NCBI RefSeq assembly: GCF_056712565.1
Contig: NZ_CM160072.1
Length of the DNA: 64,000 nt
Strand: one strand, 5' to 3'
Shown: piece after piece, positions 1 to 6,000 of the stretch
Layout: each line of letters begins with the position of its first letter
Position numbering within the stretch: position 1 is the stretch's first letter
Made by a program: the position numbers

Positions 1-3000
1 ATTTTGCCGAGCTGGAAAGCGCCTGTTTAAACTCACTGAAGCTGAGAGCTTCTTCGCCTTCGGCAAGGCCTTCGAAGTATTCTTCGTAAGCCTTTTCCAT
101 GATTGTGTCGAAATCCATATCACTCACCTGAGTTTCTTTCCAGCCAGCGACGGGCACCATTTTCGGTTTTAAACGTTTTGCTTTTGGTATACGTCATCGC
201 GGTGAACGTACCGTCCTGGTTGGGGAACACGCCACATACCAGAGATTCGCTGTTGCCAAGATCGATAGTATCCATGCTGACCTCATTTCCCCTTAACGCC
301 GGGGTAGCGGAACAAAAACCTGCTGCATAGTTATTAAAGTTGAACCCTGCCGTCATGTTCTTACGCCTCGGGCTGGCTACTTAACCCCTGACCACTGCCT
401 GGTAACTAGAAGTATTGCCCTGCATTCTGTGGGGTGGGGAGAGGGAATGAATTAAGTTTAGAAAAATGAACTTTTCAGGTCAATGTTTTTTTATCAAAAC
501 ATTTTAAGCAGGCAGCTGTTAAGCCATCACCACGATGGCATACAGTTAATCAAATAGATGAGGTCGGTTAAATATTTTGTTGAATTTTAAAGCATACGCC
601 CAATATGCAAGATAGATCATCCAGCATAATTGAAGGGTAGCGAGGATTCGTGGGGACTAAAAGAATATCCGGCCCTTCTATCTCCAGTTTACGAATGACA
701 GGTGTTGTGGTCCCTTTGGGTAAGGCAAGGACAATATTTCCTGGTTGTACGGTTCGATCGGGATCAACAAAAACTGTTGAACCATTTGGGATGGAAACTC
801 CCCCACCAGATGTTGACATACTGTCACTCTCTAGAACAACTGCAAAGGTATTGGCCGGGATTTCTCCGACAAGCTGCACACAAGAGGTTATTGAGGAATT
901 TTTCATATAATCACTCCAGCTTGCTGCCTGCTGAAGTGATAGTAGCGGAACCGTTTTTATCGGCGGTAAAGATAGATCAAGCGAATCACCTGTATTTAAC
1001 TCTCCTCCATTAAGAAGCCAATTTTCGTTTACTTTCAATATTTTTGCCAGTGAACTTATGTAACGCGAGGACGGCGCTCCTCCACCGTTCATCCATTGAC
1101 TTACGGAGCCTTTTGATGCGCCAGTGGCATTGACAAGGTCTTTGCCTTTCAGGTTTAGCGCATGCATACGTTGGGTTATGCGTTCAGATATTGTTTGCTT
1201 GTTCATGTTTTGATTTTAAAACACAGATGGTTTTGTTTCTTGACTTTCTTTGGTTTTGATTATTAAACTTTTGGCGTTCAGTTTTATGGAGCGACTCATG
1301 AAAAAATCAGAAGTATTAGGCTATTTTGGCGGAGTTGTTAAAACAGCCGCAGCTCTAGGAACGTCAAAAACCACAGTCAGCATGTGGGGGGAAGAGGTTC
1401 CGTGGAAATGGGCGTTGCTAATTCAGGCAGTCACTGCCGGGGCGCTCAAATATGAGTTACACATACCGACGGTTGTCATTCCCGGTTCTGATCATAATCC
1501 GCCTTCTAACCAAGGGGGGATTCATGAAAATCAAGCATGAACACATCCGCATGGCGATGAATGCCTGGGCGCGTCCTGATGGCGAAAAAGTTCCGGCAGC
1601 TGGAATAACCCAGGCTTATTTTGAGTTGGGTATGACGTTTCCTGAACTGTACGACGACAGCCATCCGGAAGCCCTGGCTCGCAATACCCAGAAAATTTTC
1701 CGCTGGATAGAGAAAGACACCCCTGATGCAGTTGAAAAAATTCAGGCGTTGTTACCAGCGATCGAAAAGGCAATGCCACCTTTGCTGGTGGCCAGAATGC
1801 GCAGCCACAGTTCAGCTTATTTTCGGGAGCTGGTGGAGACGCGGGAGCGACTGGTGAGAGACGCTGATGATTTTGTCGCAGTGGCAATCGCCGGTTTCAA
1901 TCAGATGAACCGTGGTGGCCCGGCAGGAAATGCTGTGGCAGTACATTGACTGACAATAGCCATATCGAATCGCTTCCGGCAACTCGTGAGTAAAAAGATT
2001 CGGTATCAGAAGAGGTGAGTATGGCTAACGCCTGGCTCAGATTATGGCATGACATGCCAAATGACCCTAAGTGGCGAACAATTGCCAGGGTGTCAGGGCA
2101 GCCAATTGCAACAGTGATGGCAGTGTATATCCACCTCCTGGTGAGCGCGTCACGAAATGTCACGCGAGGTCACATTGATGTCACGACAGAAGATTTGGCA
2201 AGTGCGCTCGACGTGACAGAAGAGGTAATTGATTCAATTTTGCAGACGATGCAGGGGCGGGTACTTGATGGTGATTTAATCACTGGATGGGAAAAACGCC
2301 AGGTGCTTAAAGAGGACAACGGCAATATTTCGCAAACCGCAAAATCTCCTGCAGAGCGCAAGAGGGCGCAGCGAGAGAGGGAAAGAAAGCGGGAACAAAA
2401 TGGCGATTGTCACGGCGCGTCACGAAATGTCACGCACATGTCACGACGAGTCACGACAGATAAAGATACAGATAAAGATACAGATCAAGAAGATCAAAAC
2501 ACTATGGTCCATGGCGTAAAAAACGCCACGAACCAGGCAGGGGATGTTCAGACCGTCAATCTTGGTCAGCCAGCAGGCACGACACCGGAAGCCGATTCAG
2601 CGTATGCGCTGAAAGCCGATTCGGGCGCTGTGCAGCAGGTGATGACCGCAAGGCCGGAGCAATCACACCAACTGCAGCAGCCCGAAGCCGATTCCGCCAT
2701 TCAGCGGGAAGCCGATCGGGTAGTCCCGGAAAACACCGGGCAGTCTGTGGGACGAGTGGATTATCCGGATGTGTTCGAACAGGTCTGGCGGGAGTACCCG
2801 TTGCGTGCTGGGGCAAACCCGAAGAAATCCGCTTTCAGTGCCTGGAAGGCCAGATTACGCGAGGGGGTGCCACCAGAGGCCATGCTGGATGGCGTGAGGC
2901 GTTACGCAAGATACTTGGCGGCTACCGGGAAAACGGGAACGGAATTTGTTCAGCGAGCGACGACGTTTTTTGGACCGGACCGGAATTTTGAGAACCCCTG

Positions 3001-6000
3001 GTTGCTCCCGGTAAGCGGCACGAACAACCAGCGTTGTGTGAATCATATTTCTGAACCGGATAACGAAATTCCGCCGGGCTTCAGGGGGTAAGTGTTAATT
3101 TCTGGTCATGAGGTAATTTTCAGGAGGGCTTGTGGCAAAAGTTTTTACACAAGAAGAGCGGGAAAAAATTAAAGGACAGGTTGTTGAACTCGTACGCCAG
3201 AGTGGGCGTGAGACGTTACGGCAACTGGAAGTCAAGACAGGTGCGACAAGATATCTGATGAGCGTTCTCGCAAGAGAGCTGGTTGCCAGCGGCGATGTAT
3301 GCAACTCTGGTTACGGGTTATTCCCGTCTGAACAGGCGCGTAAGGACTGGCAAAATGCCAGTAAAAAGCTCTCAAGGGCAAAGCTGAAGAAACCATCTGC
3401 GGTTGATCCGGACCTTATCTGGTCATTACCTGACGGAGAAATACGTCGCTACGACAGGCGTCAGAACATAATCTGTCGCGAGTGCCGGAAGAGTGAAGTT
3501 ATGCAGCGCATATTGTCGTTTTATCAGGGTGATGTTCGGTATTTATTGAAGTGACGAGATTAAAGTGCATTAGTTCAGATGCAAATTGACATTTTGTGGC
3601 ACAGGGTAGAGCTAGCGTGGTTGTCCGCTTTGTGCCAATAGCGGACATTGCTGGCTCATGGTATGTTAGTTTAAGGAGGCAGGTTATGCCCTGTATTTCG
3701 CTGTGGTATAATAGTTGCGCAATTGATACAAGGGAGCGTTACATCGTGAAAATTGTTTTCGAGGTTAATGGAAAGAAAGTTCCACTAAAATCTTTAAAAT
3801 ACATAAGCAAAAAAGATCAACTCGAAGTAATGAAAAACTGGTTCTTTGAAAACTTTGAAGATCCGGCAAATGCTTGTCCGTATGAAAGTAGAGAAGGTGG
3901 CTATGCTTACATATATGGCGGGCCGTATGATGCGAGCGAAGAACTACAATCCATCTTCGGTCAATATGTTAAATCTGAGTATATTGAGGAATTAGTAGAT
4001 GAATTACAAACACAATGTTTTGACTGGTCTGGAAACTCAAATAATATAGATGATTGGTACGATGATGATATCTACGACGCTGTAACGTCTTCCGGTAATC
4101 CGTATTTAAAATTCATTGATAATATCGATAAAATAAAAAAACTTGCAAAAGATAAAACTGAACAACAGCAAAAAAACCACTTGCTTAGTTTGCTCTACAC
4201 GAATGTTATTACAGCTTTGGAAACGCTTTATGTTGAGCTATTCATTAATTCTATAGAGAAAGATGATGTCTACATAGCCAATTGTATAGAAAAAGGTAAG
4301 ACTGAATTTAAAGTAAGCAAAGATATTGCTGCGTTGCCTTTCAAGGGTGAACCCATCGAGAAAATTAGGGGAGAGCTAATCAGGTCAATCAAGGAACACT
4401 TGATCAGTGCAAGCTGGCATAGCACTAAAAAGGTAATCGACCGCTATGAAGCTACATTCGATATAAAAGTACAAAAAGACTGTCCGATAGAAGCTATTGA
4501 ATTGGCAACCCTCAATCGAAATCACTTAGTGCATCGTGGTGGAAAGGATAAAGAAGGGAACCTCGTAGTGATTACAGACCAGGATCTTGAAACGCTGATT
4601 GAAAATGCATCGAACCTGGCAATTATGCTCTACAACAGTTTAAATGTAGCAACGAATAAAACCACCATTTTGCAACCAGATGACAAACCGTTCATTCATG
4701 AATTTTAATAGCGCAGGTCATACATGGATATTCGCACACGAAAGACAAAATTTTTAGAGTCGTTAGATTCAACTGAAGTGATACGCAAAGCAGTAAGTCT
4801 CGCTATAGATTGCATTATTGATAATCATAATAGTAATGAAGATACCCCCTTAGTTATTACCAGCTATGATGATCTCTGTAGAATCCAGGTGCTAAATTAT
4901 GTACAGGAGTTTTGCGAAGCTGCATTCCCTGATATGGATGAATATTACTTTAGTCCTAACATACTTCGCATCAACGGCAAGACTAGTGAAGAAGCTTGTA
5001 TTAACTTAATTAAACTCTTAAGAAGTACAAAAGGCATGCTATTCTGGTCCGATGCCCCATCGTGGTTCGCTAGCCTCCCCGACGGATTATTCCATGTTGT
5101 TAACATTGATCAAAAAATCGTTACTCGCGGCCTTAATAAGAAAAACTCTAAGCCGACAATAATCAATAAAGATTACAGTGTAGATACACTACTATCAGAG
5201 CTATTTTTGAATGGCGCACACATGGAGCAACCCAACGTACACAACGTTTCTGAGGGAAACATGAAGTTCTATGATGAATGCCATGCTGGATTAATCAGAC
5301 CAATACCCGCTCCAATAGGCGCGTCATACGATGAAGAGATCACAATTAATTCTCCAGATTGGCAAAAGCTCGCGTGTGTAGCTTTACGCCGCTATCAGTC
5401 GAAGGAATGTCATGACGGAATGCAATGGGATACAACCGATCATGGTTGGACTGATGTAATCGCGTATCCATTCGTCGAAGAAATACAATCAATGGATAAT
5501 AGTGGTTATCGACAATGTTTAGTTGGGCTGGTCACAATAAACAATTCAAATGCAAATTCTCCGTACCTATCTACCGTTTGGATACATCCATTTTATCGCA
5601 GGAGAGGGTTATTAAGTAAGTTATGGCCAAAATTACAAGAGTTATATGGAAGTAACTTCGAAATTGAGCGACCTAATGAAAATATGAAAGCATTTCTGAA
5701 AAGTGCGAAACACGCAGATTACTAATTTATGAATCAGTCTGTGGAGTTAGGGTTGGTGTCAACAAGTAGGGTAAGAGCCTCAACGTGATGCTATGCCGAC
5801 CTGCTCCCTGAGAATTCACACAGAAGGCTGCTAGCAATGTCTGCAGATCGCTCAAAGCGGACTAGAAGGTTAGCTTGCGTCGGACTTGGCGTATTTAAAG
5901 AAGTGCTGGTGGTGACTGGTTGTTGTGTTCCATTTCTACAGAACAAAATCACAGAAACTATACCCAATAGTTATATTGAATCAATGATGAGACAGCCTCA

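Follow-up and report, generated by a model that had tools for sequence, protein, structure and literature searches.

We have studied the replication module of a lambda-like prophage, integrated beside ompW, inside which the analyzed stretch of contig NZ_CM160072.1 begins (64,000 nucleotides, termed here the window). The module occupies positions 2021-3560, and is probably a lambda-type replicon that initiates theta replication using one phage protein (Rep), an origin placed within the gene for that protein, and helicase loading by the DnaB-DnaC machinery of the host. That the repeats in rep form a working origin is supported by three independent lines of sequence comparison, namely constraint among alleles, covariation of the repeats with the N-terminal domain of Rep, and conservation of an A-rich tract and palindrome core. 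Dependence on host DnaC is the best-supported, and most likely, reading of the loading step. The segment 2021-3560 is 100% identical in ATCC 11775 and in many extraintestinal pathogenic (ExPEC) and avian pathogenic (APEC) E. coli genomes. The alignment of the window with E. coli S88 (NC_011742) shows an identity of 99.4% or more along its length, except for a gap of ~240 nt near 23.6 kb.

A preliminary description of this DNA had proposed that the open reading frame at the start of the module encodes an initiator. This is borne out by profile comparison: PHROG 3729 ('replication initiation protein') matches the protein from end to end (E = 5e-258). The frame has 358 amino acids (aa) when counted from the GTG at 2015; the database proteins begin at ATG 2021 and have 356 aa. 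The NCBI cluster containing Rep has 5786 members and is named 'phage replisome organizer', and RefSeq names the initiator 'hypothetical protein' in the genomes listed. No Pfam family matched Rep at E ≤ 0.01, with Phage_rep_O, HTH_36 and DUF1376 all unmatched. The family PF09681 (Phage_rep_org_N) aligned weakly with the N-terminal domain, over positions 1-118 of the 121 in the model but with a score of 12.8 bits (E = 0.12) where the cut-off is 23.3, and there were weak matches of Rep to PHROGs 4880 and 5968, both 'replisome organizer'. An AlphaFold2 (AF2) model of Rep, with a mean predicted local distance difference test score (pLDDT) of 56, divides the protein into five parts. These are listed below the gene itself.

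2021-3091, + strand: rep gene, encoding the 356-aa initiator (PHROG 3729, NCBI cluster name)
2021-2293, + strand, aa 1-91: N-domain, helical with a hairpin and winged-helix-like, presumed to bind the iterons (AF2, pLDDT 64-88)
aa 110-126: basic helix of Rep (AF2)
aa 128-245: disordered interdomain linker of Rep (AF2)
2768-2992, + strand, aa 250-324: C-terminal helical domain (CTD1), presumed to contact the replisome or loader (AF2, helices with pLDDT 69-81)
3014-3088, + strand, aa 332-356: DnaT-like C-terminal tail, disordered, ...VNHISEPDNEIPPGFRG (alignment with DnaT)

A Foldseek search of the PDB with the full-length AF2 model gave weak winged-helix repressor matches only (E > 1), and was uninformative for the C-domain. 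CTD1 matches PHROGs 1701, 26426, 270 and 9327, labelled as replication, 'DnaD-like loader' or 'primosomal'. It has no sequence relative in Pfam or the PDB; the PDB profile search picked up nothing beyond the DnaT tail and a designed repeat protein.

In ori-lambda the iterons are followed by an AT-rich region and then by a palindrome. The elements found within rep are as follows.

2149-2185, + strand: iteron cluster 1, three copies of GTCACG and one of GTCACA, with spacings of 10/10/11 bp (repeat search)
2212-2217, - strand: single inverted iteron copy, reading CTGTCACGTC on the - strand (repeat search)
2409-2455, + strand: iteron cluster 2, five copies of GTCACG with spacings of 10/10/11/10 bp, coding for linker aa 130-145 (repeat search)
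2456-2503, + strand: A-rich, low-GC tract, presumed DNA-unwinding element, with (ACAGATAAAGAT)x3 at 2456-2491 (GC content, repeats)
2505-2535, no strand assigned: conserved palindrome TGGTCCATGGCGT-AAAAA-ACGCCACGAACCA, 13+13 nt (inverted repeat)

The preliminary description had counted about nine copies of GTCACG or TGTCACG in two clusters. We find ten copies of (T)GTCACG, nine direct and one inverted; on the + strand GTCACG begins at 2149, 2159, 2180, 2409, 2419, 2429, 2440 and 2450, with GTCACA at 2169, and the starts of the two clusters are 260 bp apart. The repeats also stand up to comparison with shuffled sequence. The number of + strand copies of GTCACG expected per 321 nt is 0.09 (Poisson P about 1e-13), and none of 200 shuffles of the window that preserved dinucleotides gave more than 3 in any 321 nt. 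The hexamer is translated in all three frames (giving ASR, VT, GHI, CHG and MSR) and is therefore a repeat of the DNA and not of the peptide. Cluster 1 codes for a low-confidence loop of the N-domain (aa 43-56) that is rich in insertions and deletions in the family alignment, and cluster 2 for the start of the disordered linker. On the AF2 model, both would be segments of the protein that can tolerate a sequence dictated by the DNA.

The AT-richer stretch said to follow the iterons is evident. The GC content is 0.37-0.38 at 2440-2529 compared with 0.52-0.62 on the flanks, the AT skew is +0.58, and the A-rich sequence GATAAAGATACAGATAAAGATACAGATCAAGAAGATCAA spans 2459-2497, with GATC sites within the tract at 2483 and 2492. 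The copy number of the 12-nt A-rich unit differs among alleles, with one extra unit in four and 6-nt insertions or deletions in others. All of these are in frame, and so alter the DKDT repeat of the protein linker. As a DNA hairpin the palindrome has a calculated stability of -8.7 kcal/mol (z = -3.1). No DnaA box (TTATCCACA, allowing one mismatch) was found in 2000-3600.

Are these elements constrained as DNA? In a set of 69 distinct alleles, 3.7% of iteron positions are polymorphic, compared with 21.9% of positions in the remainder of the rep gene, and synonymous variation is low in both iteron clusters (0.11-0.14 variant codons per codon, compared with 0.40-0.79 elsewhere). More distant relatives provide a second view. 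In two homologues that are 47% identical and carry a diverged form of the same N-domain (N-domain A; loci L004 and L006), GTAACG replaces GTCACG in both clusters. Initiators with an unrelated N-domain (N-domain B, MRDYAKV...; L100, L091, L092 and L094) have AAGGGGCTT as their iteron, in two arrays with 11-bp spacing. In both groups of relatives the two clusters lie 245-270 bp apart and the spacing is 10-11 bp. Since different N-domains carry different iterons in the same layout, the iteron tracks the DNA-binding N-domain, and by this comparison the two-array layout is a conserved design. The palindrome core CATGGCG(N6-8)CGCCA is kept in L004, L006, L097, L098 and L100, where the proteins are 47-65% identical, and the A-rich tract together with the core, AAAACAC..TGGTnCATGGCG(A/T)AAAAA.CGCCA, persists across diverged relatives. 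The earlier proposal of an origin embedded in the initiator gene, following the logic of lambda, is thus upheld by the iterons, AT-rich region and palindrome, and by iterons that covary with the N-domain.

The arrays could alternatively be operators for a regulator, or the by-product of a repeated peptide, and have nothing to do with an origin. We regard this explanation as extremely improbable. The hexamer is read in three frames, and it covaries with the N-domain of the initiator, not with the repressor or cro genes. Moreover, the A-rich tract and palindrome come after the arrays as they do in ori-lambda, and synonymous variation is reduced inside the arrays themselves.

How does an initiator of this kind obtain a helicase? 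The preliminary description recognized no helicase loader in the module, and considered the next gene too small to be one. Both statements hold. E. coli DnaC, two phage DnaC-like proteins and one lambda-P-like protein, used as tblastn queries, gave no match in the window, and no helicase, loader or primase is annotated by RefSeq in the whole of the S88 prophage. The neighboring gene is:

3132-3554, + strand: DUF977 gene ('LygF', 'Ren-like exclusion protein'), 140 aa, adjoining the replication module (PF06163, 2.4e-29; PHROG 142, 2.5e-44)

Its product matches no loader family (DnaC/IstB PF01695, lambda P PF06992) or AAA+ ATPase, has no NCBIfam match and no relative in the PDB; it has a further, weak match to PHROG 2391, 'DNA binding protein'. 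We found no functional work in the literature on DUF977, LygF or 'DnaT-like' phage proteins.

We compared the module with 80 IMG/VR loci in which Rep is 95-100% identical. These are near-identical E. coli loci only, and are suited to counting loaders, not to assessing diversity. In 64 of the 80 loci rep is followed directly by the DUF977 gene, a DnaC-like gene follows rep in 13, and something else in the remaining three. The DnaC-like protein is 48% identical to E. coli DnaC, and its gene starts 6-10 nt past the rep stop codon, which forms a clean module boundary between the loader-less and loader-bearing forms. In one locus (L018, 3752-5575) an extra G in a GGGGG run at the rep stop codon fuses rep and the DnaC-like gene into an open reading frame of ~616 aa, which reflects either a frameshift or an error in the sequencing. 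The deposited genomes of phages Evi and Tritos have the same loader-less module, Evi and mEp460_ev081 being coliphages from faecal samples (PMC10910852). Loader-less modules with other initiator bodies and the same tail are found in mEp460_ev081, HannyBb, SPN1S, PAT1 and a Klebsiella phage. A profile search of genome contigs with CTD1 gave seven loci. A gene for a DnaC-like AAA+ protein comes after the C-domain and tail found in Rep in L004, L006, Citrobacter, Pluralibacter and Raoultella genomes and the Shiga toxin (Stx) phage 75/02, a phage of type Eru4 (PMC8951638). From the sibling loci and deposited phages that lack a loader it follows that a phage-encoded loader is dispensable for Rep, and the simplest reading, and the most likely, is that host DnaC substitutes for it.

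Could the DUF977 protein be the missing adaptor, either as a small loader that is not an ATPase or as a co-factor that delivers DnaB? The gene lies directly downstream of rep in the 64 sibling loci, as it does in Tritos, Evi, mEp460_ev081 and HannyBb. Yet it also lies downstream of DnaC-like loaders (L041, L079-L085 and 75/02 Stx), so that the two do not alternate; since DUF977 co-occurs with these loaders it is not their substitute. It is absent from the loader-less, tail-bearing modules of SPN1S, the Klebsiella phage and PAT1, and neither a loader family nor an ATPase is matched. Its position is that of lambda ren, in keeping with the PHROG 142 label 'Ren-like exclusion'. An adaptor role is consequently very improbable.

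Another explanation is that the replicon has decayed, i.e., that a DnaC-like loader has been deleted and the prophage has lost autonomous replication. Loaders are indeed present in sibling alleles, and the terminase and lysozyme genes are frameshifted in the S88 copy of the prophage. However, most sibling loci (64 of 80) have the loader-less form, which occurs in the deposited genomes of Tritos and of the faecal isolate Evi (PMC10910852). The module boundary at the rep stop codon is clean, and purifying selection acts on the iterons, tail and C-domain. We therefore give hardly any credence to decay.

The absence of an encoded loader has to be considered together with the C-terminus of Rep. The last 25 residues are identical to residues 155-179 of E. 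coli DnaT at 15 of 25 positions (60%), with the motif SEPDxxIPPGFRG, and the tail matches the DnaT chains of PDB 6aep, 2ru8 and 9zbt. The NCBIfam model for DnaT (NF002770) scores 19.2 bits against Rep (cut-off 201) over model positions 156-179 only, short of a full-length match; the three-helix domain of DnaT (PF17948) has no match in Rep. In the tail, variant codons among the 69 alleles are synonymous in 15 cases and nonsynonymous in five, and by this measure it is under purifying selection at the protein level. Given a module with no loader and a DnaT-like tail, we infer that Rep most likely borrows the DnaB-DnaC machinery of the host.

The tail recurs on quite different proteins. By alignment, N-domains, C-domains and tails are combined as a mosaic in the initiator family, and some sibling initiators (e.g., P0101) carry the three-helix, single-stranded DNA-binding domain of DnaT at 56% identity. 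The same tail ends Rac YdaU, the Gifsy-2 O homologue, and the initiators of 75/02 Stx, SPN1S and a Klebsiella phage; the initiators of mEp460_ev081 and HannyBb have it on a different N-terminal body, and that of SPN1S holds essentially the whole C-terminal half of DnaT. In every case examined an IPPGFRG-type tail is followed by a DnaC-like loader or by none (L004, L006, L090-L095, L099, Rac YdaU-YdaV, 75/02 Stx, Gifsy-2 and the host dnaT-dnaC). An acidic tail (tail 2, ..EPLDxEE..) is followed by a lambda-P-like gene, both after CTD1 (L097, L098) and after the DnaT three-helix domain (L007, L008). Tail type thus seems to predict loader type, whatever the body of the C-domain. In three of these loci the P-like gene begins within rep, sharing its last 75-90 nt in a different frame (L007, 6950-7038; L097, 3257-3333; L098, 4929-5020), so that one stretch of DNA codes for both acidic tail 2 and the beginning of P.

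One explanation of this association, which we put forward tentatively, is that the tail of ~20 residues (SEPDxxIPPGFRG) is a portable docking peptide for loaders of the DnaC family, or for the DnaB-DnaC complex. It is common to host DnaT and at least five unrelated bodies of phage initiator. Were this so, the tail would by itself suffice for an initiator bound at an origin to make use of the host loader, explaining phages that have an initiator but no loader ('initiator-solo' phages). The tail would also be the missing determinant of the recruitment of DnaB-DnaC by DnaT in replication restart, and the dnaT-dnaC operon would be a domesticated phage pair of initiator C-terminus and loader.

Several observations weigh against this interpretation, or against host loading by Rep more generally. 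Physical linkage may contribute to the correlation between tail and loader: the codons of the tail adjoin (tail 1) or overlap (tail 2) the loader gene, so the two could be transferred jointly by recombination, and the last rep codons, TTC AGG GGG, are at the same time the Shine-Dalgarno sequence of the DnaC-like gene. An AF2 model of CTD1 and the tail joined through (G4S)x8 to E. coli DnaC, made with 12 paired rows, showed no docking; the tail had a pLDDT of 29-38, below that in the model of the monomer, while the DnaC part was folded (pLDDT about 80). The fusion does not settle the matter, since DnaC works in the form of a DnaB6-DnaC6 complex and only pLDDT values were returned. Neither of two papers (PMC13377028, PMC4132743) names a binding partner for the DnaT tail. 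CTD1 has no structural relative that we could find, and the idea that it is a diverged DnaT three-helix domain was dropped (hhalign probability 0.4%). Lastly, we found no experimental paper on this replicon and no description of its origin, with subscription journals lying outside the coverage. The link from the tail to DnaC is accordingly one that we infer from sequence relationships.

The DnaT resemblance allows a different route to the helicase. The tail, with CTD1, might plug Rep into the PriA-PriB-DnaT restart primosome, either by binding PriA or by acting as an origin-tethered DnaT, so that loading would be PriA dependent. The tail is after all shared with DnaT, sibling initiators carry its single-stranded DNA-binding domain (56% identity), and the SPN1S initiator contains essentially the whole C-terminal half of DnaT and has no loader. 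Furthermore, the C-terminal domain of DnaT docks on PriA via a conserved hydrophobic surface (PMC13377028). Against this, in phages the tail accompanies DnaC-like genes and not priA- or priB-like genes, and Rep is without the three-helix domain. DnaT residues 154-179 are apparently unresolved in the PriA/PriB/DnaT complexes, judging from the residue counts in PMC13377028 and the lengths of the proteins. On balance we consider the primosome route unlikely.

If host DnaB-DnaC is loaded at an origin in rep, initiation might proceed as follows. On derepression, transcription from pR would cross the origin and produce Rep. The N-domains of Rep would occupy the iterons along one face of the helix, and as the two arrays are about 25 helical turns apart they may be bridged. 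Binding would destabilize the neighboring A-rich tract, and the C-domain and DnaT-like tail would then recruit host DnaB-DnaC, directly or via the restart primosome. Host DnaC would thereby take the role played by the phage DnaC-like protein in the sibling alleles, and by P in lambda, and the replisome would be completed by the primase and Pol III of the host.

The elements that precede rep are the following.

568-1206, - strand: repressor gene with S24 and helix-turn-helix (HTH) domains (open reading frame, Pfam)
1240-1269, + strand: pR-like promoter, TTGACT-18-TAAACT, a match to consensus only, upstream of the cro-like, ydaT/cII-like and rep genes
1298-1540, + strand: cro-like gene (Pfam P22_Cro, 1e-15), in the same operon as rep
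1524-1949, + strand: YdaT/cII-like gene (YdaT_toxin, 6e-10; PHROG 163 'CII-like activator', 4e-45), immediately 5' of rep

The location of the promoter suits a rightward early operon. The repressor frame is open over 212 aa and contains an HTH_3 domain (aa 17-64) and a Peptidase_S24 domain (aa 113-197); RefSeq gives just a 112-aa 'LexA family protein' (568-906) in S88 despite identical DNA there, which is probably an under-called start. A terminator-like hairpin within the ydaT/cII-like gene (1775-1792, - strand) recalls the placement of the lambda oop RNA, and has no Rfam match.

After the DUF977 gene come two unknown genes, hok/sok, DUF968, rusA, Q, the lysis genes and lambda-like head and tail genes. 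The two unknown genes (3746-4708 and 4724-5725) show weak similarity to a HEPN/RES N-terminal domain and to GNAT (E of about 1e-4 to 1e-3), with products that fall in PHROGs without known function; they may be moron or defence cargo. The hok/sok-type toxin-antitoxin locus lies at 6174-6348 and 6286-6498, with a sok RNA match of 113 bits (RF01794) and a hokD-like open reading frame in the S88 annotation. At 6507-6588 there is an isrK-like match that falls below threshold. The Rfam scan gave no match in the replication module, the sok RNA and the isrK-like match elsewhere in the window being the only ones.

The module is very common, with a match in 4135 of 5426 complete E. coli genomes and at least 80% of the module present in 1532. 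From its sequence the replicon appears real but ordinary, a widespread variant of the lambda logic in which two iteron arrays are phased, the initiator has a DnaT-like tail and the phage supplies no loader. Beyond the preliminary description, the analysis adds the palindrome, the DnaT-like tail, the near-identical sibling alleles that bear a loader, and the commonness of the module. A defined origin and a dispensable loader would make a compact, one-gene phage replicon. They would also account for several of the non-lambda 'Eru' replication types of Stx phages; in the Eru4 phage 75/02 Stx a DnaC-like loader accompanies this C-domain and tail. Of greater interest, as a by-product, is the shared tail as a hypothesized loader-docking peptide of phage initiators and DnaT. 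It offers a testable lead on the recruitment of DnaB-DnaC by DnaT, an open question whose mechanism is stated to be unknown in a structural paper of 2026 (PMC13377028).

A close parallel is with lambda O and ori-lambda. In both systems the origin lies within the initiator gene, in the part coding for an interdomain linker, and has iterons, an AT-rich region and a palindrome in that order; both initiators have a DNA-binding N-domain and a C-terminal part tied to helicase loading (roles that are presumed for Rep), and both genes lie in a pR operon after cro and cII-like genes. Unlike lambda, however, Rep has no sequence similarity to O, its iterons are cores of 6-7 bp at 10-11 bp spacing whereas those of lambda are 19-bp inverted repeats, and a second iteron array lies 260 bp upstream within the region coding for the N-domain. 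The window has no P gene, and Rep ends instead in the DnaT-like tail.

The Rac replicon of E. coli K-12 (oriJ; ydaU-ydaV-ydaW) has the same operon order of repressor, cro/YdaS-like, YdaT-like and initiator genes. YdaU has the same tail, ...VNTVSLPDSAIPPGFRG, but this is the only shared part, YdaU having a DUF1376 N-domain, another C-domain and other repeats. The DnaC-like YdaV is kept in Rac and is absent from the window.

The junction of E. coli dnaT and dnaC resembles that of phage rep and dnaC-like genes, ...ATTCCnCCnGGnTTCAGrGGGTrA being followed after a few nt by ATGAAAAA. In K-12 (L096, 2976-2982) it is arranged as in L004, L006, L041, L079 and L099, with the FRG codons supplying the Shine-Dalgarno sequence. 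The dnaC gene is a domesticated phage gene (PMC5109545), and the likeness of the junctions is consistent with descent of dnaT-dnaC from a phage initiator-loader pair. Rep differs from DnaT in having neither its N-domain nor its acidic, PriB-binding linker, and no three-helix, single-stranded DNA-binding domain.

With the replisome organizers (PF09681) Rep shares the NCBI cluster name, the match itself being weak. The type replisome organizer is G38P of SPP1, which has its origin in its own gene, an N-terminal origin-binding domain and a C-terminal region that binds partners. SPP1 encodes its own loader and helicase, whereas the module of the window encodes neither.

An O-like initiator with a DnaT C-terminal motif was noted earlier for the domesticated DopC, in which an initiator-type N-domain is fused to a DnaT-derived C-terminal element (PMC5509034, Brezellec et al. 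2017). DopC is the product of a domesticated chromosomal gene, has the P-like partner DopE, and no iterons were found for it; Rep, in contrast, is encoded by a phage gene, has iterons, and has no partner loader. In this last respect the module resembles those of SPN1S and PAT1 (Uetakevirus) and of the mEp460-like coliphages, where a single initiator ending in IPPGFRG has no loader gene next to it. The SPN1S initiator differs in carrying the whole C-terminal half of DnaT, and that of mEp460_ev081 in having a different N-terminal body and five iterons of ~23 bp in one cluster.

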